Below, piece after piece: positions 9,851 through 30,797 of a stretch of 64,000 nt of DNA (the stretch's first letter is position 1; each line of letters opens with the position of its first letter). Under the pieces are notes generated by a model. It had not been told where the DNA came from and made no database searches. It worked only from the letters and a program-made list of their open reading frames with translations. The stretch lies in the IMG/VR virus record IMGVR_UViG_3300030012_001572, positions 32,130 through 96,129 of that record. One strand, written 5' to 3'. Source of the DNA: a virus. A program made the position numbers and the translations under genes.

Positions 9851-10243
9851 ATGGCGGCTTTAAATACAGATACAAGATTAGTTATGACTATACTTTTTGT
9901 TGGTGCATTAAGTGGAGCAAATGTATTTGCTTATGCAACATTTGGAACAGGCTTTCCTTATGGCCCAATAGCACATTCAGTCTTATTTGGATTGGGAACA
10001 ATAGGTGCAATCATGGTAATGAAAGCATTGTTTGATTTAGCACTTAATGATAAAATAGAGATGTGGCTATTGGATAGAAAAATTGCGGCTTATTGGGAAA
10101 GAAAAGCAAGAGATGAACAACAAAGACAAAAAATGCGTGAAAGCGCAAGACAGTTTGGTGGTTCAACACCTTTCTATCAGCCTCAATTACAACAGGAAGA
10201 AGAAAATACTGTTGGAAGCGAGTTTTTAGCCACCCTTCAATAA
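9851..10243 (+). CDS. Two-TM membrane protein with C-terminal coiled coil (GTPase operon)
   Basis: Hydrophobic segments LVMTILFVGALSGANVFAYA and IAHSVLFGLGTIGAIMVM, then a charged helix. Confidence 0.7.
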   Translation: MAALNTDTRLVMTILFVGALSGANVFAYATFGTGFPYGPIAHSVLFGLGTIGAIMVMKALFDLALNDKIEMWLLDRKIAAYWERKARDEQQRQKMRESARQFGGSTPFYQPQLQQEEENTVGSEFLATLQ

Positions 10244-10256
10244 AGGGGTTGGTTAA

Positions 10257-10475
10257 GTGGTCTTTGGAGATTTGATGGGTTTTTCCGACTCGGACTACGC
10301 ATATAATCAACAAAGAGCGCATTCAGCAGATGTTTTCTTTCTCAAGATGAGAGCATGGTTTTGGGGTAGTTTTGCTACCTTGCTATCTTTCTTCGTTGGT
10401 AATATAATGGGTGTTTTTGATATAAATATTATTGGATGGATGATTGAAGGAGTAAAAGGTTTATGGGGGCATTAA
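10257..10475 (+). CDS. Small membrane protein (GTPase operon)
   Basis: TM-like AWFWGSFATLLSFFVGNIMGVF plus amphipathic C-terminus; abuts the GTPase gene. Confidence 0.65.
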   Translation: MVFGDLMGFSDSDYAYNQQRAHSADVFFLKMRAWFWGSFATLLSFFVGNIMGVFDINIIGWMIEGVKGLWGH

Positions 10476-11144
10476 ATGTCATTAATGACAGGATTCGCCA
10501 TATTAGTTGGTGAAGCAGTTATAGGTTTTTGGAAGAAAGTTCATGCTATTAATTTCGGTGTTTATGGAGCAACAATGGTAGGAAAAACTACATTAAGTCA
10601 TCAATTAAGAACAAGGGGAGAAGTGCCGACAATAAATGAAAGAACCGTTGGATTACATAGAGCCTCAAGAAAAAATGTTAAAATAGATGGAGAATCATGG
10701 ACAGTTAAAAGTGCTGATATTGGAGGAGAAGCAATATACTGGAAAGAATGGGTTAAAGATATGCAAAAGCGTAAAGTTAAGTATATTATATTTATGATAG
10801 ACCACAGACACTTAGATAATTCTTCAAACTTAGACCATCAAGTAGCATGGAAATTTTTAGTTGATACAATATGTTCTAATATTTGGCCTACTGGAAGAAG
10901 AAAGAAAGAACCCGATTATCCAATGGCAGTAGGAATATGGGCTAATAAATATGATATATGGGGAGAAAAATATCCATTAAAAGAAGGCCAAACAATAGAT
11001 AAACATGAAATATTTGAACCATTTAAATATGGAATGAGGCAGTTAAATGATAAAGGAATACCTTGTTTCAAATATATAGTTTCAGCAAAGTCAGACCCCG
11101 AAATGGTATATAGAGGCGTAATGACAATGATAAAAGATTACTGA
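10476..11144 (+). CDS. Ras-superfamily small GTPase, Arf-like
   Basis: G1 GATMVGKT, G2 RTVG, G3 DIGGE, YIIFMID, G4 ANKYD, G5 SAK; ~25 aa hydrophobic/amphipathic N-terminal extension. Confidence 0.85.
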   Translation: MSLMTGFAILVGEAVIGFWKKVHAINFGVYGATMVGKTTLSHQLRTRGEVPTINERTVGLHRASRKNVKIDGESWTVKSADIGGEAIYWKEWVKDMQKRKVKYIIFMIDHRHLDNSSNLDHQVAWKFLVDTICSNIWPTGRRKKEPDYPMAVGIWANKYDIWGEKYPLKEGQTIDKHEIFEPFKYGMRQLNDKGIPCFKYIVSAKSDPEMVYRGVMTMIKDY

Positions 11145-11154
11145 GGAATGAAAG

Positions 11155-11823
11155 ATGTATCAAAACCAATTAATAGGACAGAACGCACCACAACAATTTA
11201 ATCCAACATTATCACCATTACAACAAGCAAGAGCAAGTGGACAAGTAGTAGAATATAAGTTTACAGAAGTTAGACCTAAAAAACAATTAAAAGAACTTAT
11301 TAAAGTATTAACTGCCGAACCTAAAAAACTATTATTCATTAAATATGGTAAGAAATTTAATTTAAAAGATAGGTGTGTTGTTTGTGGAATGCATCATGTT
11401 TGGGAGCAAGGAGATTATTTAAGACCTCCAATGCCTTTAGATAAAGTAGTTAAAGGTAGACCACTCATGGGAACATATTGTCCTAAACATTCTTCTATGT
11501 ATATGCAATTAGAGATGCTTCAACAACAAATACTGGCGGATAAGCATGGATTAGAGTTTAAGCGATTTGTTCCTAAAATGCCAAAGATGATGAAAAGTGG
11601 GCCAATTACTGAATTAAGCAAAAAAGATGTAATGGCTCTTACCGCAAGCGGTTGGTTTATTAAGCCACCCGCTTTAGACGATAACAGGACGGCAACACAA
11701 GAGGTCATTCAACTAATAACTGAAATTAACATAATGACTGAGAGAGTTAGCCATTTAATGCTTAAACATCAAATTGAGGCAATTAACTCAACACCAGAAG
11801 CAAAAGAAACTAAAGAGGAATAG
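11155..11823 (+). CDS. Zn-finger protein (GTPase operon)
   Basis: CVVCGMHH...YCPKH; helical C-terminus. Confidence 0.55.
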   Translation: MYQNQLIGQNAPQQFNPTLSPLQQARASGQVVEYKFTEVRPKKQLKELIKVLTAEPKKLLFIKYGKKFNLKDRCVVCGMHHVWEQGDYLRPPMPLDKVVKGRPLMGTYCPKHSSMYMQLEMLQQQILADKHGLEFKRFVPKMPKMMKSGPITELSKKDVMALTASGWFIKPPALDDNRTATQEVIQLITEINIMTERVSHLMLKHQIEAINSTPEAKETKEE

Positions 11824-11825
11824 AT

Positions 11826-12482
11826 ATGGTATTTGGAACAAGTAACAAAACTGTTTTGGGTGCAGTTCAACAACAAGGCGACCAAAATTTTAAATCAATG
11901 AACAACTTATTATCTTTGCAAGATAATCATGTTGAAGAATTTTTTCAATATCATGGTGAACATTTCTTAGCCGCACTTGAAAAACTCATGGAAGATGTTA
12001 TTGAGCGTGTTGTTTCTCAAATGCTTGCAAAACTTTCTTTTGATACTAGCGGTTCATCTATTACTGTAAATAGAGATGCCTTAAGAGAATACGAAAGAAT
12101 TACTCAAGAAAACATTGATTTAGATTTACAATTGTTATTACAATCAGCAATCAATACAGAAGTCGTAAATCAAAGAAAACTTGCGAAGCAACAATACCTT
12201 GAATCTCAAGGTTTTAGTGGCGGTGGAATACAACAAATTACTCAACCAACCGCAGGTATGGCAATTGCAGGATTAACAGGAACAACAGGACAATATCAGC
12301 AAATGCAAGGTGCTGTAAATAATGGTTCGGGTTATCCCGTTCCTCCAAGTGGAACAGACGGATATGGCCGTCCTTATTGGATTGATGCACAAGGTCAAAT
12401 GAGTTATGAACCACCACAAAGCGGATTACATTTAGGTGCAGGTATTCAAAAGGCTGCTGCTTGGGCTAAATGGTTAATGTGA
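11826..12482 (+). CDS. Coiled-coil protein with Q/G-rich linker, WW-like motif and amphipathic C-terminus (GTPase operon)
   Basis: PPSGTDGYGRPYWIDAQGQMSYEPP; ends IQKAAAWAKWLM. Confidence 0.55.
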   Translation: MVFGTSNKTVLGAVQQQGDQNFKSMNNLLSLQDNHVEEFFQYHGEHFLAALEKLMEDVIERVVSQMLAKLSFDTSGSSITVNRDALREYERITQENIDLDLQLLLQSAINTEVVNQRKLAKQQYLESQGFSGGGIQQITQPTAGMAIAGLTGTTGQYQQMQGAVNNGSGYPVPPSGTDGYGRPYWIDAQGQMSYEPPQSGLHLGAGIQKAAAWAKWLM

Positions 12483-19177: not shown

Positions 19178-22000
19178 ATGTCCGAAATAGCCACTCTAAA
19201 TACCTCTATACTTGGTTTAAGTGGAACTATGGAAAATTTCATCAAATCATTAGGTAAATTTGAAAAATTTGCTGATTCAACTAAAGGAAAAGTAAAAGAA
19301 TTAACTAAAGTTCATGATGCTTTAGGTTTAAAACTTGAAAATAACGAACTTGTTAGTAAAAGAACTGGGAATAGAGTAAACGAATTTGGTCAAGAAGTTA
19401 CTAAAGTCGGAGACAAAATGCTCGCTTTTAATAAAAGAAGTTCTATTCTCAATGAAACTATTAAATCACTAAATAAAAGTAATGAAAGATTTAATTTAGG
19501 AATGAAATCTTTCAAAGAGTATCAAAAAAGAGGCGGAAACTTAGCGGAATATTTAGCGGAATTTATTTCTAGTTCAAGAGAAGAAATCACTATTTTTGGT
19601 GTTGAAGCGGCTAAAGCCCGTAAAGTCATGTATGGGTTTTTACCGCCTGGAATGTTTAGAATGCTGAATAAAGTTTCTTCAACCCTTCAATTATTTGGTG
19701 GTCAATATAGAAAATTAGTAACTGATTCAAGTGCTGCTAAGGAAGAAATAGAACTTTTAACTGAGGCATTAAAGGTTGCTACTGACGAAACAGAAATTAA
19801 AGGATTACAAGAAAGATTGGCCGATTTAGAAACACCTGATAATTTATTTACTAATCTCTTTAAGGGATTTAAAAAAGTAAAGGGTCTTTTAGATAAACCA
19901 TTACCTCTTAATTTTGACCAAGATGGAATCAATGAAATGGACACATATGCTCAAAAAGCCAAAGCATTGTTCATGAAAAATTTTACTCTTACATTAACTC
20001 CTGATAAAAAATTAGAACTAGAAAGAACCAAAGACTTAATTAAAAGTTTAAAGAAACCAATACAGGTATCAATGGACGATTTGAACAAAGCAAGAGAGCA
20101 AAAGGGAAGTCTTTTGGGTATTGATAGAAGTGAAGTAAAAAAGGCTGAAAAGGAATTGATGGAAACTAATAAAAAATTAGCCGAAGTAGAAGCATTAAAA
20201 CAAAATGTTGCTATTTCAAGCCCTACTATTGCTATGAAATTTAATAAAGAAATAAATGAATTAAAACAGAAATCTATTGACTTAACTTCTAAAATGCTTG
20301 ATGAAGAATCAAAATATGAAATTGCTCTTCAAAAAGCAGTAGGTGATGCTAGTGATTTTGACCCTAATATTAAAAGAATAAAAGATTTAGAAAAAGCACT
20401 TGCTACTGAAAAAGAATTAGAAGATGAAGGCAGAAATGGAATAAGAAAAACTTATACAGATTTATACAGAAATTTAGGTGAAATGCAAGAGGCATTCAAA
20501 AAAGGAGTGGACAATTCTGAAGCAATTTTACAAATAGAAACTTCTATTGGTAAAACAGGTTCTTTAATTTCTGATGCAGAAAAAACTATGGAGGCTTTAG
20601 TATCAAGAGCAGAAATGTTCCCCGATAATCCTGAATACTTTGATAGTGTAGTTAAACAACAAGAAGTCATAAATGAATTAATGGAAAGACAGGAAAATTT
20701 ACAAGGGGCTTTAATTTCAAAGCAAGCCGAAGGAAAGGGATTAGATAAACTAAAAAAAGAAATAGTAGAAAATGATTTACTAATTGCCCAAAAAGAAGAG
20801 TTTATTATGTTAATGGAAGAAGAAGTAAGATATAATAAACAAAAAATAAGTGATGCAAAAGAACTCCTTGCGGCTGGAAATTTAAATAAAAAAGCAACAG
20901 AAGCAGCATTCAAAGAAATAGAAGAAAGAGAATTAAACATTTCAGGTGCATTCACTAATATACAAGATGCCGAAGAATCTATTGATACTGCAAAAGAAAA
21001 GAATGTTGAAGCAGAAGAACAAATTGAAATATTAAAAGATATGAGGGAAAACTCAATAGATAAACTATTAGAAAAACACCCATTCTTTAGCGGCATCAAT
21101 AAGTTAAGAAAAGGATTAAAAAAGGTATTACCCGCACTCGGACAAGCATTGAGAATGTTTATGATGGGCTTCTTATATGTAAGCATGGCAATATTGGCTG
21201 TATTAGCCCTTGTTAAATTATTTGGCCCAATCATAAAAGAAACCATAGCCAGTATAATAACTGTTATTTCTCCTATTATTGGATTTATTATCGGAGCAGC
21301 AAGTATGGTATTTGAAGGAATAAAAAGTATATTTAATGCATTCTTTGGTGATGGAACTTTTGAAGATGCTATTGACGGATTAATTAAAATTGGTTTGGGG
21401 CTTCTTGGAATGGCAATAGGATTAATAGGAGTTGTTTTAGGTGCTTTGGGAACTCTTATTCTTGCAGGAGTTGGAAGTTTATTTAAGAGAGCATTAGGTT
21501 TCCTCAAAGGAATGCTTAAAAATACCAAAGCATTCCTAAAAGGAATGGCTGTTATATTGGGTATAGCAGCAACAATTGTTGCTTTAATTATGGGTGCGCC
21601 AGTATTATTTGCATTAGCCATAGGTGTTGCAGTATTTAAAGGATTTAGTATTCTAATTAAACCTATTACTAAGGCTATTAAATATATTAAAAAGAAATTT
21701 AAAGATTTCTTAGACATTTTACCATTTGCCGAAGGAGGAACAGTCAGTAAAACTGGAATGCAATTAGTTGGAGAAAAAGGCCCAGAATTAGTTTCATTAC
21801 CGAAAGGCTCAAGAGTTCATACAAACAGTAGTTCAAGAAAAATGCTTGCAGGTGGCGGAACAAGCAATACTAATAATATAAATGTAACTATTAATGCTAA
21901 AGATACATCAAGAGCAGAAATGGATAGAATAGCAAAAGAAGTATCAAGAACAATTACAAATAGTATTCAACGACAGAATAATACTAGCAATTTGAGGTGA
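19178..22000 (+). CDS. Tape measure protein
   Basis: 940 aa; long coiled coil, hydrophobic helices, C-terminal FAEGG...LVGEKGPELV. Confidence 0.85.
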   Translation: MSEIATLNTSILGLSGTMENFIKSLGKFEKFADSTKGKVKELTKVHDALGLKLENNELVSKRTGNRVNEFGQEVTKVGDKMLAFNKRSSILNETIKSLNKSNERFNLGMKSFKEYQKRGGNLAEYLAEFISSSREEITIFGVEAAKARKVMYGFLPPGMFRMLNKVSSTLQLFGGQYRKLVTDSSAAKEEIELLTEALKVATDETEIKGLQERLADLETPDNLFTNLFKGFKKVKGLLDKPLPLNFDQDGINEMDTYAQKAKALFMKNFTLTLTPDKKLELERTKDLIKSLKKPIQVSMDDLNKAREQKGSLLGIDRSEVKKAEKELMETNKKLAEVEALKQNVAISSPTIAMKFNKEINELKQKSIDLTSKMLDEESKYEIALQKAVGDASDFDPNIKRIKDLEKALATEKELEDEGRNGIRKTYTDLYRNLGEMQEAFKKGVDNSEAILQIETSIGKTGSLISDAEKTMEALVSRAEMFPDNPEYFDSVVKQQEVINELMERQENLQGALISKQAEGKGLDKLKKEIVENDLLIAQKEEFIMLMEEEVRYNKQKISDAKELLAAGNLNKKATEAAFKEIEERELNISGAFTNIQDAEESIDTAKEKNVEAEEQIEILKDMRENSIDKLLEKHPFFSGINKLRKGLKKVLPALGQALRMFMMGFLYVSMAILAVLALVKLFGPIIKETIASIITVISPIIGFIIGAASMVFEGIKSIFNAFFGDGTFEDAIDGLIKIGLGLLGMAIGLIGVVLGALGTLILAGVGSLFKRALGFLKGMLKNTKAFLKGMAVILGIAATIVALIMGAPVLFALAIGVAVFKGFSILIKPITKAIKYIKKKFKDFLDILPFAEGGTVSKTGMQLVGEKGPELVSLPKGSRVHTNSSSRKMLAGGGTSNTNNINVTINAKDTSRAEMDRIAKEVSRTITNSIQRQNNTSNLR

Positions 22001-22632: not shown

Positions 22633-23796
22633 ATGTATGATGTATTATTAGGAAAACAAAGAGGACTTGTTTTTCCTATAATGTGTAATGGCGGAGTAGT
22701 TATTGATTATCACGATAATGTTCCCTCTTTTAATAGTGCGGTTGATGATGTTAGCGAAAATATAACTGAAGCACATATTGGTTATGGTTTGTGGGCTAAT
22801 CAAGGGTCTTTTACTTTAGAAGCAATTATTACTCCATATGACATAAATGGATATGGAAAAATATCAAGTGCTACTCAGCCTACTATTGCTAACAGTAAAA
22901 AAATAATGCCTTCTAATGACCATCAATCAACAACTACTGATTATCAAAGTGAAAGATATTTACCAGTAGCAAATAGAAATGATTATGAAATGACTTTGTT
23001 TAGCAACTATGACTCAACTAATAATCCTACTTTTTGGTTTGGCTTAGTTAATACTACTTTACATAATGAAAATCAACCAGCAGAATATAAATTAAGAGCA
23101 GTAATGAAAATAAATAATGTAACTGAAACTTTTGATTCTCCTGTTTGCATTAGTCCTACATATTTAAGACGATTTAAATATAACAACGATAATTTACAAA
23201 CTTTTGATGAAGATGGAATGGGAGGGTATCGCTCTATTGGCTCTATTGCGAGCCATACGGCTACGGATTTTACGGCTGACGCTGATGGATTCACGACTAC
23301 AAATCTGTTCAATGGAGGCCGTTTAGAGGTCTTCTATCGTAGCGGATTTTCGTTTGAATCGCTCGGCTTTATCACGGCTAATTCATCAACCACCATCACC
23401 ATAAACGCCAGTTTTTCAGGAACTTTAGCAAGCGGAAGTGAGTTATTTATTCGCAGTTATGCAGAACCCGAATACATAAACGACCAATTTCATGTCGCTT
23501 GTGTATTTAATTCCACAACAAACTCAATTACTTTCTTTATTAACGGTAATCAAATTTTTACAAATAAACATACACAAACAACTGCTTTTTCTTTTTCTCC
23601 TAATGATTGCATGATAGGTCAAGCCTTATCCCATAAAGGATTTAATACTGCTGATATAAACAAACAATATATGGGAGAAATACATGAAATGAGTATGATG
23701 GATATTGCAAGAAAAAACTTTGTAGCAACATTTAATTTATTACCAAATTATGAAAATGTTTTGTTTTATTATAGATTTGAGGAGGTAGATTTATAA
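22633..23796 (+). CDS. LamG/concanavalin-like tail protein
   Basis: SFTLEAII, FHVACVFNS, FFING, YMGEIHE, YYRFEE. Confidence 0.7.
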   Translation: MYDVLLGKQRGLVFPIMCNGGVVIDYHDNVPSFNSAVDDVSENITEAHIGYGLWANQGSFTLEAIITPYDINGYGKISSATQPTIANSKKIMPSNDHQSTTTDYQSERYLPVANRNDYEMTLFSNYDSTNNPTFWFGLVNTTLHNENQPAEYKLRAVMKINNVTETFDSPVCISPTYLRRFKYNNDNLQTFDEDGMGGYRSIGSIASHTATDFTADADGFTTTNLFNGGRLEVFYRSGFSFESLGFITANSSTTITINASFSGTLASGSELFIRSYAEPEYINDQFHVACVFNSTTNSITFFINGNQIFTNKHTQTTAFSFSPNDCMIGQALSHKGFNTADINKQYMGEIHEMSMMDIARKNFVATFNLLPNYENVLFYYRFEEVDL

Positions 23797-26700
23797 TGGC
23801 AATAAGAGTTCTAAATAAAGGAGAACTAACTCCTTCTTCGGCATCTAATCAAAATACCTCAAATAATCCTATGGTTCATTGTGATAATTTAGTTTCTAGC
23901 ACAAACCCCTTAGCAGTTATTATTTATCCTGATGATACTACTTCCGAAACAATACAAAGAATTGTTTTAGCAGCAGATATGCTGACAGACTACTCTAATT
24001 TAGAAAAAACAGAAGGTAATACATTAAAGGTATATGATTCTTTTTCGCAAGAAGGAATTGATTTAAGTTCATTAACTGATATAACAACTCATCATTACTT
24101 TGTTATGGTTCATTCTGATAATCATTTATTGCATCATTTTGCTAAAATTACAGAAATACATACTACTGACGCTTTTGGTGATAGTATAAAATTTGAACCG
24201 AGTTTAGGTAATGAAATAAATCATGGAGTAAAATTCAAATTATTTAAAGGGCCAGCAGTTAGTAGTGATTTCATTTCAATCGGTTTAGGAATAAAGAAGG
24301 ATTTACAAAATTCACTACAAGTAGCCCGACCTTATTTTTGGTTTAATAGAGATGTGAATGAATTAGAAAGCAATACTAAACATTTTATTAGAGTTAGAGA
24401 AATAACAGTCGGGTCATCTTTGAATCTATCAACAAGCAGTTCTGATACAACATTCTTAGTTTCTCAAAACTATGCTAATGAAATCAAAGACTATGGTAAA
24501 TTTACTTTAAAAACAAAATTAGTAGATAATTTGAGAAATTTAGATATTGAAGGCTTTACTCCAATAACATTTACTGGAGATATGCATGCTGTAAATCATC
24601 CTGATGAAATAAGAAATATTACTGGCATTAGTTCTGGAACTATTAATGATTTATTATATAGAGGAATAGTCAGAAACAATGTTCCTGATGGAACTTATGT
24701 TACAGAAATTTTAAGTTCTAATTCAATTCGTATTTCTCAAAATGTTACTGCGGCAGTTTTAACAACCTCCTTTACTGTAAGTCATTCTAATGAAAGCCAT
24801 GCATTAGCATCAAATGATTTAACAGATTATGAAACTTCTTTCTTTAATGCAAGAAGAGACGCTGATGATTTAATTTTACCTTCTGCTTCTAATTATACAT
24901 CAAGAGGCCCGACAAGATATTTACACTATGATTTTTCAAAAGACAAAGCAAATTATAGTTATAATGTTATTGACTTAAAAATTAATGAATCTATTAAAGG
25001 GAAAACTTCTTTTTCTGAAACACAGATTGCAGACATGATGAAAATATATCCCAATAAACTAGAATTACACAGTCCTATGAGGGCAAGACAAAGATTAAGT
25101 AGAGATAAGTTGAATAAATTTGTTGATACTGGTTTAAGTGTAGGAGCAAACGGAATGCTTACAGGTAATGATGGTTTGGGCAATCAAATAGTTTCTGTTC
25201 ATATTGTAAATGTTAATAGTTATTTTACAGCAGGAGAAGAAATAAAAATAGAAGATAGATTATATATAATTTTATCTATAAATTCAGGAACAAATACTAT
25301 TACCCTATTACAAGCAGATACTACTATTGATGGTTCACCTAACACTTATTCTCGACTTGAAACAGAATCATCTTATACAGATATTGGAACACCTACAATT
25401 AATGTGGGAGATTCTGTTTTTAGAAGAGCATATAGTCCTTTTAATAAAACTCTTATTAATAGTTTTGATTTAATTAGCAATAGGCATGAAGACTTATATT
25501 TAATTACTACTTCCCAAAATGCTACATATAATTATTTTAAATGTAGTGCGATAGATGCAAGTAATAATCTACTTACATTTACTGTTAATTTAGATAAATA
25601 TTTAGAAGAAGGATTACATTTAAATAATGACTACTATTTATATTATGAAAAATTAAATGGAACAATAGAAGTATTAGACTATTATAGAACAGATGGACAA
25701 AGCATAATGAGAGTAGAGGGTAGAGACATTATGAGTAAAATATTGTCTCCTGTTGTAAATAATGATACTTTATTTAGTGAAGACATAATTTATTCTTCTT
25801 TTGGAACAATTAATCACTTAGAACAAATAGGGTTTGTTGAAGCAAGTTTCAATAGTCAAGTTATTAATATAAAAGATACTTCAAATGTTTCTGCTTCAAT
25901 CACCTTAATTGCAGGAGATAAATTATATGTTCGTAGTAAATCAAACTTCTTTAAGCCATTAGGCACAGTTTTAACAGGCAATACAGGAAATCAATTCAAT
26001 TTAGAAAGAGAAAGTAATGTTGAATGTGGCGGAGACACCTTTACAAATGGCGGTGTATTTGAATTATATAAAGCAGTAAAAAATGGTAGTCAGCCCGTTA
26101 AGAATTATATATTTAATAAAGCATTATCAAGTAATATACTGGTTGATTCAGTTACCTCTTTATCGGGAAGTTCAAACAAAGGATTATATTTTACTTCAGG
26201 AGTTTCTTTAAATAATTTAGGTAATGATGATACTCCTTTAGTTAATACTTCTTCATCAACTGATTCAAGAGCAATAGGTTATCATATAAGTAAAGTTAGC
26301 GGTGATATTGACGGTGCAGACTATCAATGTGTTTTAGGAGATGGAGCATCAACTGAATCACACGAAAATATATTAACAATAAATACTTTGATGGATTTTT
26401 CTGTTATATCTGTAAAAGAAAACGATGGCGGAAAAATAATAGAAATTGCTCCTTATATTCCAGCAACTCTAGGAAGACTAGAATCTAACTTAGCAAACAA
26501 CTATGATGCTACAAAAACTTCAATTGGATTTACTTTAGGAGATGCTTTGATAACAGATTTACAAAATTTTATTAATGTTTCTAGTTCTGATAGTTCATAT
26601 GTTGCACTTTCAGAATTATTTATCAGAAGAAATGATTCTGTATTCATTAATGATAGATTTGTTGGTTTTGCCTTAGAACAGCATTTATCAGAAAATCATT

Positions 26701-29700
26701 GTTTTATTGTATTAGATAGACAGGTATTTTATGAAACAGGTCAAACTGTTACAATTATTCATAATAGATTTGGTCTTAGTAAAGGAACATTAGGTGATGG
26801 CCCAAGTTCTGATAATAAAAATACTCATGAATTAGAATTGATAAATGTAGGACACTTACACGGAGGTAAAATTATTTCTAATGTGTTTGATTATGAATCA
26901 GTTAATGGATTAAGAACCTTTGATTTTGGTTTAAAATATAATGATGGTAGCGAAATAACTTCTTTTGAAAAGTTTGGTAATCCCAGTTATGCGATATATA
27001 GTCTTGAAAAAGGAGATAATACTAATTATGCTGCCAGTTATAAAGTTAATTTTCATAGAGATACTTATGCTAAAGTTAAAAGTAGATTGGTAGATTCATC
27101 TAATATTTATAACCATTTACCAATTGAAGGCAGGGGATTTTACACCCCTACTTATTCTAATTTTGATGATAAACAAATAGGAGTATCAAGCACCCTTCAA
27201 ACATACGGTTATCCTTCTACTTTCCCATTTATTATTGCTAGTGGAAATGTCTTTTCAACAGCCGCAAACGCACAATTAGTCGCAGGTAAATTCAATACAA
27301 ATACTTCTCAAAATATACAGATTAGGAAAAAATCGGTTGATAGAATGTTTTTATTTGTTAATTCAGATGAGAACCCTTACCATGAAAATAGATTAGACAG
27401 TTTGTGTAATCCTTTAAGAACCAGAAATATTTCTGATTATGGAATAGTTGGTTTATTGCCTCTCAAGAATACAAATACTCAAGATGACAATAATCAAGAT
27501 ATAAACACCCAAAGACACACTAATGTAGATGAAGAATATTCTTTTTCTAATATTGTTTCTTCTGATAAAAGCATAAATTCTTTAATGAATGTAGGTATTA
27601 TGAGATTAACAGAAGTCGTAGTTGATTGGTCTTTTAATCAAATAGACCCCGAAGATATTCAAGATGAAATGATTACTGATGCGGCAGTAAAAGAAATTTT
27701 TACACCAACAACATTAGAAGAAGATGGTGTTGCTATTTATACTCAAGCAGGAAGTTATAATGTAGGTGGCGACCCAAACAGCATACAATTTTATAATGCT
27801 CCTACTGGCGGAAGTATTGTCAATTTCGCTTCAACCCTTGTAGAAGCGGGAGATGCTATAATTGCTGATGGAACAGGATTTTTGATTGGTTTTTGTTTAA
27901 ACAATAACCCCAATACATTAATGTCGGATGCTTTGTTTGCTAATTCAAATAAAAGTGCATATTACATAGGTGAAGTTAAAAAAATTAAAAAGGCTAATAT
28001 TGCAGGAAGCGATTTAAAAGGAAGACAAAAAGACACTTTTATGGGCTTTGATGATACATTAAGTATGTTAAGAACAGGATATTTCAATAGTCCTGCCCAT
28101 ACTTCTACACAAAAACAATTAGTTCTTGATAATCAAAATTCCCCCAATGAGATTCATGCTCATAGTTCAGGTAGCACACCTTCTGAATCATCAAGTTGGT
28201 TTGCTTTACAATTTAATGATAGTAGCGGAAATAAAGTCGGTTTCTTTTTCTGGTTTAATGTAGAAAATTCTGACGGTAATCAAATAGATACTATTCCAGC
28301 CGTCTATGCTAGTGATTATTCGCCTCATTCTGATGGGATAACATATACTTCTGTTGAAATACAATTAGCAAACGGATATAGTGATACTGATTTCCATGCG
28401 GCTTTAGCAACGGCTTTTGATTCTGTTAATTTAAGAACAAATCATGTTTTTGGTGGGAATGAAGCAAATGATTCTAATGCTGCTACTTATGGTGGAGCAA
28501 CAGTTACTCAATTAAGAACAAAAAGAGCCGCACCAAATAATTTTTATGAAACTACTGCCTTACTTAATCATCACCCCGTTTCTACTGTTACTACGGTAAA
28601 TGTAGATATTACCGCAGATGACACAGGATGGGGTGGTAATCCAAGTGCATATTACAATAAATGGAGTGAAATTCTAGGAGGGCAAATAAATAATTATGTT
28701 TCAATACCAAGAAAAGGAGGAACTTATTTGCCAGTTTCTATTGCAACCCAATATACTTCTACTCCTACATTTTATTCAGATATATTAACTAATATTGCAG
28801 GTTCTCCTTTATCTACTTCTTTTGCTGATATTTCTACAACAGATGCCAATGAGTTAAAATATACTGATTTTATACCAGTAGCACTAAGAGGATTTGTAAT
28901 AGAAGACTCAAAAGGTAAAAAGAAAATAAATGCTGGCGAATCATTCCCTAAAATTAAATCACTATTTAGAAAAAATATTAGCAGTTCTCATACTATATTT
29001 GGTTTAACTTCAGAATATTCTACTTGGTTTAATAAATATAAATACTATATGGATTTAGGGGCAACAAAAGAAGAAAATACAGATTTACCAAATGAAGGAA
29101 ATGGTTTAAAAATAGGATTTAAACCTAGATTAGATGCTTCTTTAGCGACTCTAATTTCAGGAACTCAAAGAAGTAATTCAGGAAATAGAATATATAATTA
29201 TTCTTTTAATACTAATAACACTAAATTATCTTGGTTAAGAGATTTAGACTTAACTGGTTGTTATTTAGTTAGAGTAAGCGGAACTAATATTGATAATAAC
29301 TATTTTGTAGAAGGCTTTGGTTTCGCTTATGTTATTTCACATGAAATAGACCCAAGCGATTCTAATAAAGTAATCTTAACTACTTCAACAAATTTAGGCC
29401 CGAATACATATAGAATATTACAACCTAATCATACTTGTTTTTATGACTTTACTCCGACTCAAATAAATATAGGCCAACTTTCAAGTTCCTATACAAAAAA
29501 GCCTAAAATAAATGAATGCTATGAGGATTCTTTGAAAAGCCATGCACTTGATGATGTAAGCATGGATAATGATAGTATTAACGACCAAGAAGCAATAGGC
29601 TCAATATATGTTTTAATTGACTTAACAGGTGATGTTTCGTCTGGTGATAAAATAATAAATACTAGCATGAGAAGAGAATTTTTCGATAATTTACCCACTA

Positions 29701-30797
29701 CAATTTGTTTAAGTGACGGAGAAGAAACTTTCAAAACAGGAATGCAATCTAACAGTTTTAGTCTTACATTTGATAGTCTGAAAGAATTAAAAGGAATAGT
29801 TAGCCTTAGTGAAATAATTACTTTAAATGTAGGAAAAAACTTTAACAAAGATAGTAAACGATGTTTGATAGGGAATACTGTAAATATTGTTCAAGAATCT
29901 GAAGAACTGGCTAAAAGTTTATTAGAAAAAGAAAATATAAGTTTCACTTCTATAAATGAACCTAGTTATCCTTTATTTACTGCTCCTAACTTTCAAGGAA
30001 ATGATTTGTTATCCGCTACTAGATTTTTATTAGGTAAAAAAGATAGAGATATTGAAGTTATTGATGGTAATTTTGTAATTGATGATGAAGAAGCAACTAA
30101 TAAATATGCAAATGTATTATTATCAGAAAACAGTAAATATCAAATATATGAATTTGAAAAACAAAAAACGACCTTTTCTTTCTATAATGAAGTCATTGTT
30201 TATGGTAGTTCGCATAAATCAATTAAAAAAGATTTACGAAGCGTTAAAAAGATAGGAAGAAAAACATTGGAAGTGTTTGATAATAAATTGATTACTCAAG
30301 AAGATGTAGATAAAGAAGCAAGAGAACTATTGAAACTGCACTCTCAATTAAATGAGTCGTATAAAGTCACGGTATCAACAACGGGATTAGAACAAATAAA
30401 AAGCGGAGACATAATACAATTTGAACTTAAAAGAGAAAATGTAGATAGAGATGAATATATTATATTATCCGTAGAACATAGACTCTCTAATCTTATGGAA
30501 TTAGAATTAGGAAAATATGCTAAATCATTGGATGATAGATTAGTAGAAATTTTACAGGAAACTAAAGATACTAAATCTCACTTAAGAAGTAAACAATTCG
30601 CTGAAAAAACAGAAACCATTGAAACCTTAGATACTATTAAAATTAAGGAAATAAGAACATTAATAAGAAAAAGAAGCACTACTGGAAATCCTCTCACGCT
30701 TGGCTTTGGAACAAATCTAAATACAAGTAGCGTTGAACTAGGATTTGAGGGTGGACAAACTATCACGATTACAAATTTAAGGGAGGAAAACATATGA
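23796..30797 (+). CDS. Very large tail tip/hub protein with adhesin-like inserts (2333 aa)
   Basis: VEGRD hub motif; C-terminal FYNEVIVYG...IKSGDII...ILSVEH pattern of tail hub proteins; N/S/T-rich. Confidence 0.7.
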   Translation: MAIRVLNKGELTPSSASNQNTSNNPMVHCDNLVSSTNPLAVIIYPDDTTSETIQRIVLAADMLTDYSNLEKTEGNTLKVYDSFSQEGIDLSSLTDITTHHYFVMVHSDNHLLHHFAKITEIHTTDAFGDSIKFEPSLGNEINHGVKFKLFKGPAVSSDFISIGLGIKKDLQNSLQVARPYFWFNRDVNELESNTKHFIRVREITVGSSLNLSTSSSDTTFLVSQNYANEIKDYGKFTLKTKLVDNLRNLDIEGFTPITFTGDMHAVNHPDEIRNITGISSGTINDLLYRGIVRNNVPDGTYVTEILSSNSIRISQNVTAAVLTTSFTVSHSNESHALASNDLTDYETSFFNARRDADDLILPSASNYTSRGPTRYLHYDFSKDKANYSYNVIDLKINESIKGKTSFSETQIADMMKIYPNKLELHSPMRARQRLSRDKLNKFVDTGLSVGANGMLTGNDGLGNQIVSVHIVNVNSYFTAGEEIKIEDRLYIILSINSGTNTITLLQADTTIDGSPNTYSRLETESSYTDIGTPTINVGDSVFRRAYSPFNKTLINSFDLISNRHEDLYLITTSQNATYNYFKCSAIDASNNLLTFTVNLDKYLEEGLHLNNDYYLYYEKLNGTIEVLDYYRTDGQSIMRVEGRDIMSKILSPVVNNDTLFSEDIIYSSFGTINHLEQIGFVEASFNSQVINIKDTSNVSASITLIAGDKLYVRSKSNFFKPLGTVLTGNTGNQFNLERESNVECGGDTFTNGGVFELYKAVKNGSQPVKNYIFNKALSSNILVDSVTSLSGSSNKGLYFTSGVSLNNLGNDDTPLVNTSSSTDSRAIGYHISKVSGDIDGADYQCVLGDGASTESHENILTINTLMDFSVISVKENDGGKIIEIAPYIPATLGRLESNLANNYDATKTSIGFTLGDALITDLQNFINVSSSDSSYVALSELFIRRNDSVFINDRFVGFALEQHLSENHCFIVLDRQVFYETGQTVTIIHNRFGLSKGTLGDGPSSDNKNTHELELINVGHLHGGKIISNVFDYESVNGLRTFDFGLKYNDGSEITSFEKFGNPSYAIYSLEKGDNTNYAASYKVNFHRDTYAKVKSRLVDSSNIYNHLPIEGRGFYTPTYSNFDDKQIGVSSTLQTYGYPSTFPFIIASGNVFSTAANAQLVAGKFNTNTSQNIQIRKKSVDRMFLFVNSDENPYHENRLDSLCNPLRTRNISDYGIVGLLPLKNTNTQDDNNQDINTQRHTNVDEEYSFSNIVSSDKSINSLMNVGIMRLTEVVVDWSFNQIDPEDIQDEMITDAAVKEIFTPTTLEEDGVAIYTQAGSYNVGGDPNSIQFYNAPTGGSIVNFASTLVEAGDAIIADGTGFLIGFCLNNNPNTLMSDALFANSNKSAYYIGEVKKIKKANIAGSDLKGRQKDTFMGFDDTLSMLRTGYFNSPAHTSTQKQLVLDNQNSPNEIHAHSSGSTPSESSSWFALQFNDSSGNKVGFFFWFNVENSDGNQIDTIPAVYASDYSPHSDGITYTSVEIQLANGYSDTDFHAALATAFDSVNLRTNHVFGGNEANDSNAATYGGATVTQLRTKRAAPNNFYETTALLNHHPVSTVTTVNVDITADDTGWGGNPSAYYNKWSEILGGQINNYVSIPRKGGTYLPVSIATQYTSTPTFYSDILTNIAGSPLSTSFADISTTDANELKYTDFIPVALRGFVIEDSKGKKKINAGESFPKIKSLFRKNISSSHTIFGLTSEYSTWFNKYKYYMDLGATKEENTDLPNEGNGLKIGFKPRLDASLATLISGTQRSNSGNRIYNYSFNTNNTKLSWLRDLDLTGCYLVRVSGTNIDNNYFVEGFGFAYVISHEIDPSDSNKVILTTSTNLGPNTYRILQPNHTCFYDFTPTQINIGQLSSSYTKKPKINECYEDSLKSHALDDVSMDNDSINDQEAIGSIYVLIDLTGDVSSGDKIINTSMRREFFDNLPTTICLSDGEETFKTGMQSNSFSLTFDSLKELKGIVSLSEIITLNVGKNFNKDSKRCLIGNTVNIVQESEELAKSLLEKENISFTSINEPSYPLFTAPNFQGNDLLSATRFLLGKKDRDIEVIDGNFVIDDEEATNKYANVLLSENSKYQIYEFEKQKTTFSFYNEVIVYGSSHKSIKKDLRSVKKIGRKTLEVFDNKLITQEDVDKEARELLKLHSQLNESYKVTVSTTGLEQIKSGDIIQFELKRENVDRDEYIILSVEHRLSNLMELELGKYAKSLDDRLVEILQETKDTKSHLRSKQFAEKTETIETLDTIKIKEIRTLIRKRSTTGNPLTLGFGTNLNTSSVELGFEGGQTITITNLREENI

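Follow-up and report, generated by a model that had tools for sequence, protein, structure and literature searches.

We analysed five adjacent genes, A to E, at positions 9851–12482 of a 64 kb stretch of viral DNA (hereafter the window), which forms the right-hand 64 kb of the 96,129-bp virus record IMGVR_UViG_3300030012_001572. Together these genes constitute a previously undescribed five-gene unit, here called the cassette, that is kept in five deep lineages of magroviruses. Its third gene encodes a complete small GTPase that we place in the Arf-like group. The cassette is a testable candidate for the means by which such viruses act on the membrane of their host and perhaps exit through it. 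Within the portions of the published literature open to searching, no paper was found that pairs 'magrovirus' with 'GTPase' or describes the cassette; there was a lone mention of 'Sar1' in one paper.

The source virus is a magrovirus, a tailed virus infecting marine group II archaea, because its GTPase has a close homologue in gp088 of Poseidoniales virus YSH_150918. Marine group II archaea rank with the most abundant cells of the surface ocean, and magroviruses with its most abundant viruses; neither has been cultured. The window carries genes for a DNA ligase, a prohead protease, an HK97-type capsid protein, a tail tube protein, a family B polymerase and a ribonucleotide reductase. The features of the cassette are as follows.

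9851–10243, + strand: gene A, 130-amino-acid (aa) protein with two predicted membrane segments (residues 10–28 and 39–61) and a charged helical tail (open reading frame (ORF), hydropathy)
10257–10475, + strand: gene B, 72-aa protein with one hydrophobic segment (about residues 33–60) (ORF, hydropathy)
10476–11144, + strand: gene C, 222-aa Arf-like small GTPase (ORF, motifs, AlphaFold2 model, fold matches)
10482–10541, + strand: N-terminal hydrophobic/amphipathic helix of the GTPase (residues 3–22), a helix in the model
10566–10589, + strand: G1, or P-loop, GATMVGKT (residues 31–38); G31, G36 and K37 at least 90% conserved
10644–10646, + strand: G2, switch I threonine T57; Thr aligned in most rows of family alignment A1, by eye
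10716–10730, + strand: G3, DIGGE (residues 81–85); D81 and G84 invariant, last position E, Q or H across the family
10896–10907, + strand: polybasic loop RRKK (residues 141–144) between helix 3 and strand 5; a basic loop occurs in every full-length family member
10944–10955, + strand: G4, guanine-specificity motif NKYD (residues 157–160); K158 at least 90% conserved, NKxD kept across the family
11082–11090, + strand: G5, SAK (residues 203–205), from alignment A1
11155–11823, + strand: gene D, 222-aa Cys/His protein (ORF, hhalign across lineages)
11374–11490, + strand: conserved core of D, C74 ... G-T-Y-C109-P-x-H112 (alignment of 20 sequences)
11826–12482, + strand: gene E, 218-aa protein whose helical N-terminal domain carries the ITQENIDL motif and whose tail is rich in Gln and Gly (ORF, alignment A4)
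12423–12479, + strand: C-terminal Trp-rich amphipathic stretch of E (residues 200–218), in rows of lineage W only and absent in lineages V and Z

A five-gene cassette kept across magroviruses

All five ORFs were confirmed on the plus strand, tightly packed as a sequence-only reading of the window had described them. The gaps A-B, B-C, C-D and D-E measure 13, 0, 10 and 2 nucleotides (nt), the genes are co-directional, and the stop codon of gene B directly adjoins the GTPase start codon. That reading had also called the set an operon. The upstream gene, however, ends 9 nt 5' of gene A and the next gene begins 11 nt 3' of gene E, and the five genes are a stretch of a continuous, tightly packed late gene array with no delimited operon. 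Median ratios of nonsynonymous to synonymous substitution, computed against 57–79 related contigs, were 0.08 for A, 0.12 for B, 0.07 for C, 0.15 for D and 0.15 for E. Because these ratios are low (0.07–0.15), we concluded that all five are real genes under strong purifying selection and not chance ORFs.

Synteny across magroviruses, proposed earlier as a check on the set, was strongly borne out. Eighty closely related viral contigs share a fixed order of capsid gene, three small genes, A, B, GTPase, D and E, and the GTPase is the best conserved gene of this block (88% mean identity, compared with 73.5% for the capsid protein). With distant GTPases as queries, we obtained 84 further viral loci, which make up four more lineages (V, Z, Y and X, the window's lineage being W) at 25–37% GTPase identity. 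The same five-slot architecture was found in all five lineages. In V, Z, Y and X the A slot holds a membrane protein of 143–272 aa, the B slot a small protein of 72–99 aa, the D slot a Cys/His protein of 256–357 aa and the E slot a Gln-rich protein of 190–272 aa; in X, Y and Z, gene E is followed by one more gene, which encodes 80 aa with two membrane segments. In each lineage, nearly all loci leave −1 to +9 nt between B and the GTPase.

Homology of the individual slots was assessed with hhalign, in which cross-position controls scored 2.4% or less. The GTPases scored 99.8% or more across lineages. Gene D scored 90% for W-Y, 87.5% for W-V and 100% for V-Y, with 99–100% among the non-W lineages, and gene E scored 72% for W-V, 84% for V-Z and 99.9% for Z-Y. 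The A genes of V, Z, Y and X are clear homologues of one another, as are their B genes, whereas those of lineage W had no sequence homology to them that hhalign could detect, and the equivalence of A and B between W and the other lineages therefore rests on position and topology.

The checked genomes of lineages Y and Z (G001, G002 and G004) are other magroviruses, with capsid proteins 42–45% and polymerases 30–36% identical, and the lineage V genome G003 gave a polymerase match of 34%, with no capsid protein match found. Exactly one copy of the cassette GTPase was present in each of five complete genomes that had been chosen by their polymerase and not by the GTPase.

The neighbours of the cassette differ among lineages. 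In W it lies next to head genes, following the protease, the capsid gene and three small genes and preceding the tail tube gene. In G001, about 20 kb separate the cassette from the capsid gene. Immediately upstream of gene A, lineage Z carries a Dam-type (D12-class) adenine DNA methyltransferase (L085:6014-7135), and lineage V encodes a group II chaperonin of full length, one or two genes upstream of the cassette (L161:5250-6785, L164:4820-6481), a thermosome that matches Cpn60_TCP1 at expectation values (E) of 1e-133 to 1e-140. In lineage X and part of Y, a giant ORF of 2,200–2,360 aa directly precedes the cassette (L124:164-7096, L114:491-7102 and about 30 other loci); the one scanned, that of L124, had no Pfam match. 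Small tagged genes also adjoin the cassette in lineage Y. The earlier placement of the cassette inside a virion gene cluster thus stands for the window's lineage and fails for the other four. Because the cassette stays intact in five deep lineages while its neighbours change, we concluded that it is an autonomous, vertically inherited core module and no fixed part of a virion block.

Several observations were made beside these loci. The window has a 2,333-aa ORF of its own (23796–30797), which has no BLAST similarity to the giant ORFs of X and Y. Its genome also contains candidate capsid cargo proteins tagged with an N-terminal W-x-x-I-L-K, and two small window ORFs, at 44–358 and 2652–2864, open with this motif (MNWLDILK and MSWWNIIK). 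Many ORFs flanking the cassette in lineage Y begin, end or are punctuated with (E)PM(N/E)xAWxLLK (L093:2077-13115, IMGVR_UViG_3300030376_005300). This peptide resembles the window genome's tag, and the tag system is therefore present in a second, distant magrovirus lineage. A scan of genome contigs matched only a mis-binned viral contig. Locus L175 (NZMJ01000024.1, 12.2 kb, labelled 'MAG: Maricaulis sp. isolate IN14', MAG denoting a metagenome-assembled genome) is a magrovirus fragment whose GTPase is 90% identical, and its presence in an alphaproteobacterial MAG is a binning contaminant.

Hydropathy gave two membrane segments in A and one in B, as the sequence-only reading had claimed. Hydrophobic segments occur in only 7 of the 79 window genes, and three of the seven are adjacent to one another in the cassette. 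A fourth of the seven, a 940-aa ORF after the tail tube gene (19178–22000), has four strongly hydrophobic segments (residues 661–818) and is probably the tape measure protein. Pfam matches of cassette proteins to NfeD, SARA, 3HCDH and DUF5862 were sub-threshold noise.

Gene D had been called a Zn-finger protein. An alignment of 20 sequences from the five lineages revealed a conserved Cys/His core, in which C74, G78, G101, T107, C109 and P110 are invariant and H112 is at least 90% conserved; judged from this conservation, C74...C109-P-x-H112 is a probable metal site. The CxxC of the window's lineage did not hold up as a shared feature, its second Cys not being conserved in other lineages. The model of D was mediocre (predicted local distance difference test score, pLDDT, of 61, with core residues 41–130 at about 80). 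No known family or fold was matched in Pfam, Foldseek, PDB profile and Atlas language-model searches: Foldseek gave no match at E ≤ 0.001, a wide structure search reached at most Z 4.8 and was confined to the C-terminal helix, and no language-model neighbour scored above 0.84. Weak Foldseek rows named zinc-binding domains (RNF216, ribosomal zinc ribbons, rabphilin, FYVE), none at E ≤ 0.001, and the sole PDB profile match, to AP-1 sigma (E 0.095), was rejected as chance.

Gene E encodes a conserved helical domain with the ITQENIDL motif, followed by a tail rich in Gln, Gly and Met. The amphipathic C-terminus noted in the sequence-only reading is present, but only in the window's lineage. A WW-like stretch, GRPYWIDAQGQMSYEPP, is likewise specific to lineage W in alignment A4. 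The WW-domain-like segment GYGRPYWIDAQGQMSYEPP lies at about residues 165–190 (12300–12380), again in lineage W only. Gene D of this lineage has Pro-rich stretches, PPMPLD and KPPALDD, that could possibly contact the WW-like stretch of E. In most lineages (L082-L164) the N-terminus of E has a conserved motif, M-G-(aromatic/aliphatic)-F-G-x-S-N, the window copy being MVFGTSN. Pfam and PDB profile searches found no family or PDB relatives of E; its Phasin_2 and DUF7217 matches fell below the Pfam threshold, and a PDB profile match to nucleoporin (E 0.76) reflects low-complexity sequence.

Fold and relatives of the GTPase

The GTPase motifs quoted in the sequence-only reading are present, including IIFMID at residues 104–109, and are conserved in the family alignment A1 of 18 sequences. 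A1 retains GxxxxGKT as G1, a Thr in switch I, DxGG with E, Q or H as the next residue, NKxD, SA(K) and a basic loop before strand 5. By inference only, this polybasic loop may have a role in membrane contact.

The AlphaFold model was confident (pLDDT 88.9, predicted template modelling score 0.85) and starts with a helix at residues 3–22. Foldseek matched hundreds of small GTPases, with the best template modelling scores for Arf6 (0.81) and ARL1 (0.76). A search independent of Foldseek against structural representatives ranked Arf6 highest (Z 18.0), followed by SR-beta (17.4) and Sar1 (17.3), and next by an Asgard RagA-like protein (17.0), mimivirus Rab (16.6) and G-alpha (16.4). When Foldseek's best 1000 chains were re-ranked, the top 34 were all Arf or Arl proteins (Z 18.4–16.9; root-mean-square deviation, rmsd, 2.3–2.6 Å over about 160 residues), headed by Arf6 (Z 18.4, rmsd 2.4 over 160 residues). 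An Era/EngA-type GTPase was rejected, as its fold scores lay 4–5 Z units below those of Arf.

Profile searches gave a similar picture. The best PDB match of the family profile was 8OUN, the Asgard Arf GTPase GerdArfR1, with KRas close behind, so this search alone does not discriminate. A profile built from the distant lineages only matched five chains at E ≤ 0.001, all of the Arf family: 8OUN and four Arl8-type chains labelled Arl8A, Arl10B and Arl10C. Language-model neighbours in the Atlas outside the family's own clusters all carry PF00025, the Pfam Arf domain.

Direct Pfam matching did not place the protein among filed Arf members. PF00025 (cut-off 22.3 bits) gave no match at E ≤ 1 for the window GTPase, nor in a six-frame search of the genome. 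Its single-sequence matches, all below threshold, were Roc (17.1 bits), MMR_HSR1 (16.4), SRPRB (14.3) and Ras (13.7). Among relatives, P0121 scored 16.8 bits on Pfam Arf, below the cut-off, which was passed solely by two outliers, P0168 (57 bits) and P0173 (27 bits); both lie outside the viral clade, and a homologue search with P0168 as query returned only P0168 itself. Six-frame searches of 14 control prokaryote genomes gave PF00025 scores above the curated cut-off in 13, E. coli among them, and Pfam Arf matches alone were therefore not used as proof of family. Of the WDxGGQ signature, the GTPase (S-A-D-I-G-G-E) keeps GG and lacks Trp and Gln. Some JGI records annotate the GTPase as 'GTPase SAR1 family protein', a generic COG name.

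Sequence searches returned few cellular relatives. Against 1.84 billion representatives, HMMER found 62 proteins at E ≤ 0.001, in which the full-length matches were near relatives or proteins of the same length with 28–41% identity, and no cellular protein reached E 1e-10. A tblastn search of 50,697 phage records gave no match, and in BFVD there was no similar prokaryotic-virus protein among the best matches. The borderline relative P0181 belongs to a large Chloroflexota family with the NCBI name 'ADP-ribosylation factor-like protein'. Using magrovirus sequences only, hhalign aligned the viral GTPases with this bacterial Arf-like family at 97.8% (E 1e-12, 177 columns), and the two have in common an unusual DxGGE together with W..W (switch II), IIFxIDH and NKxDxW motifs. 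These sequence comparisons point to bacterial Arf-like proteins as the nearest cellular relatives of the viral GTPase.

A maximum-likelihood tree was built from the viral GTPases of the five lineages, the bacterial Arf-like family and two Pfam-Arf-positive orphans. The GTPases of all five viral lineages formed one clade (support 100/98), separate from the bacterial family and from both orphans, and within it the tree follows the magrovirus lineages. Since the Pfam Arf cut-off was not reached, we read gene C as a new virus-specific family of the Arf-like group instead of a filed Arf member. Its earlier description as Arf-type survives as a resemblance, in the fold ranking, the profiles, the PF00025 neighbours, the bacterial kin and the position of the helix, and falls short on the Pfam cut-off and on the Trp and Gln of WDVGGQ.

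The N-terminal hydrophobic or amphipathic extension of the GTPase was recovered as the predicted helix at residues 3–22, positioned as in Arf: in long structural alignments of the predicted model it aligns with the N-terminal helix of full-length Arf1 and Arl3. With a Kyte-Doolittle mean of 1.63, residues 1–19 are a borderline case as a membrane anchor. The counterpart segment of lineages V, Z and X has lower hydrophobicity and a clearly amphipathic character (hydrophobic moment 0.4–0.5).

Possible role at the host membrane

We favour, at somewhat below an even chance, the reading that the cassette is a virus-made, membrane-associated guanosine triphosphate (GTP) switch that would act late in infection, probably for virion release. 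The egress machinery of archaeal tailed viruses was described as 'completely uncharacterized' in a 2024 review (PMC10791045), and in Haloferax the small GTPase ArvA, together with ArvB and ArvC, drives extracellular vesicle formation (PMC10927574). Because of this uncharacterized egress and the ArvA precedent, a role in remodelling or breaching a membrane late in infection is given a tentative preference. The sequence-only reading had proposed membrane remodelling or lysis timing, which would be a plausible function. The fuller proposal, that magroviruses release their progeny via a self-encoded Arf/Sar-like GTPase machine that ruptures or deforms the archaeal membrane, seems to us possible, if rather doubtful. 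In such a machine, GTP loading would put the N-terminal helix of the GTPase into the host cytoplasmic membrane, as in Arf, Sar1 and archaeal ArvA. A and B could act as anchor, receptor or exchange factor at the membrane and would set the sites of insertion. D, the positional counterpart of the Zn-ribbon protein ArvC, and E might be a regulator and an effector recruited by the GTPase. The most likely purpose would be virion release through a deformed or breached host membrane, with a membrane-bound assembly site as second choice.

Several points weigh against virion release. We infer GTP binding, membrane binding and late timing from sequence, the timing because the cassette of the window's genome runs in the same direction as the capsid and tail genes and adjoins them. 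In lineage W, head genes lie on one side of the cassette and neck/tail genes on the other, a place that assembly factors or ejection proteins occupy as well. For A and B of this lineage, as noted, hhalign detected no homology to those of the other lineages, and the catalytic position of the window GTPase holds Glu instead of Gln or His. Pfam and PHROG searches found no envelope-degrading enzyme domain in the five cassette proteins or the two downstream genes. Neither ArvB (PF09846) nor ArvC (PF09845) gave a match at E ≤ 1 in the whole virus genome or the five proteins. To our knowledge, no GTPase-driven lysis system exists in any prokaryotic virus. A complex prediction of the GTPase with the D core (residues 36–135), GTP and Mg scored 0.00 and was run without controls, so it counts neither way.

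The position of the cassette in lineage W, after the protease, capsid and three small head-proximal genes and before the tail tube gene, also suits a membrane-bound platform for assembly or maturation, on which proheads or tails would be started or matured with GTP hydrolysis as a checkpoint. T4 proheads start on the inner membrane, and the viral chaperonin upstream of the lineage V cassette and the status of the GTPase as a single-copy core gene fit such a platform. We nevertheless considered it a fairly unlikely explanation, as the cassette is untied to head and tail genes (the distant capsid gene of G001, the methylase of lineage Z) and no cassette protein matches a known morphogenetic family. 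Still less probable is a module for entry, ejection or exclusion, in which A and B, perhaps with others, would be packaged or made to form or block a channel in the host envelope, to deliver the genome or to shut out superinfecting viruses, under regulation by the GTPase. Small membrane proteins clustered beside head-completion genes do recall the P22 ejection-protein genes, which occupy a position near head-completion genes. However, none of the five proteins has the N-terminal W-x-x-I-L-K tag, which argues against packaging by that route, and a capsid-cargo reading of the cassette was rejected on the same count (0 of 5). We know of no precedent for a packaged small GTPase, and exclusion genes are usually early or lysogenic and not found in late arrays.

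Two further explanations appear very improbable. One is an SR-beta-like targeting device, a membrane-anchored Arf-like GTPase that would insert viral membrane proteins or dock ribosomes. SR-beta chains score with the best in the fold comparison (Z 17.4, 16.0 and 15.1), the lineage W N-terminus is hydrophobic enough for an anchor, and the catalytic residue of some family members is His, as it is in SR-beta and Sar1. Yet the Pfam SRPRB (PF09439) score was 14.3 bits against a cut-off of 25, 34 Arf/Arl chains came first in the structural re-ranking, no SR-alpha-like partner was seen, and the helix is borderline as an anchor in lineage W and amphipathic, not anchor-like, in other lineages. The other, to which we give equally little credence, is that these are ordinary virion structural proteins, or a generic ribosome-type GTPase (Era/EngA-like, MMR_HSR1), without any special membrane role. 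The weak MMR_HSR1 match (16.4 bits) and a faint PHROG 'virion structural protein' match of E (E 0.086) speak for it, but all of these supporting matches are below threshold. The fold comparison favoured Arf over Era/EngA by 4–5 Z units, the GTPase has no KH or other RNA-binding domain, and HK97-type head or tail proteins would not be expected to have membrane segments.

If the release reading is true, archaeal tailed viruses would gain their first known egress system and prokaryotic viruses their first GTPase-timed lysis system, and an Arf-type membrane switch would be operating outside eukaryotes and Asgard archaea. Its five small genes offer a concrete and portable candidate for the egress question. 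Arf-like membrane GTPases are central to eukaryotic trafficking and are debated in eukaryogenesis; their known range is widened here to viruses of a non-Asgard archaeon, with the nearest cellular kin bacterial. Because the GTPase is single-copy and more conserved than the capsid protein, it is also a practical magrovirus marker gene in metagenomes.

Comparison with known systems

Among viruses, the giant eukaryotic viruses encode Ras, Rab and Ran GTPases that are recent captures from their hosts. These, exemplified by mimivirus Rab (PDB 5XC5), were the only other virus-encoded small GTPases found by fold search; they differ from the magrovirus protein in being of Rab/Ras/Ran type, in belonging to a different viral realm and in having no membrane-protein cassette. 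The holin-endolysin cassettes of tailed phages resemble the magrovirus cassette in placing small membrane proteins in a late gene array, and the extra 80-aa, two-segment gene after E in lineages X, Y and Z is holin-like. In contrast to those systems, the cassette has no wall- or S-layer-degrading enzyme and carries a GTPase and two soluble partners instead, and Pfam and PHROG scans showed no sequence relation of its proteins to any holin family.

Among cellular proteins, SR-beta likewise sets an Arf-like G domain behind an N-terminal hydrophobic segment (Z 17.4), whereas the viral GTPase scores below the SRPRB cut-off, has no SR-alpha partner and has relatives with an amphipathic helix. The nearest cellular relative by sequence is the PF00025-positive bacterial Arf-like family of Chloroflexota/Anaerolineae (P0181, P0267), from which the viral GTPases stand apart as a separate clade (100/98) at about 25% identity. 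The Arf family itself (Arf1, Arf6, Arl1, Arl3, Arl8; Sar1; Asgard GerdArfR1, PDB 8OUN/8OUM) has the same G-domain fold. It shares with the viral GTPase an N-terminal helix before strand 1, DxGG in G3 and non-glycine P-loop positions as in GLDAAGKT. The viral protein differs from Arf in falling below the PF00025 cut-off and in having neither a Trp before the G3 Asp nor Gly2. Its catalytic position is Glu (Gln or His in its relatives), a polybasic insert of roughly 15 residues precedes strand 5, and its helix is nearly anchor-like in lineage W. Moreover, its gene belongs to a prokaryotic virus and lies in a fixed cassette together with genes for membrane proteins.

The closest parallel in layout is the ArvA-ArvB-ArvC system (OapA/B/C) of Haloferax volcanii and other Euryarchaeota (PMC10927574). 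The viral cassette differs from it in having no detectable ArvB (PF09846) or ArvC (PF09845), with gene D an unrelated Cys/His protein in the ArvC-like position, and in having two upstream membrane proteins that the Arv operon lacks. In both, however, the GTPase has an N-terminal amphipathic helix and is followed by a Cys-rich protein, metal-binding in the Arv operon, and another small protein. ArvA and the viral GTPase, compared by description only, also both give MMR_HSR1 in plain scans and have Arf as the closest Pfam profile. The Arv system acts on the membrane (PMC10927574), and by analogy we propose that the magrovirus cassette may do so as well.

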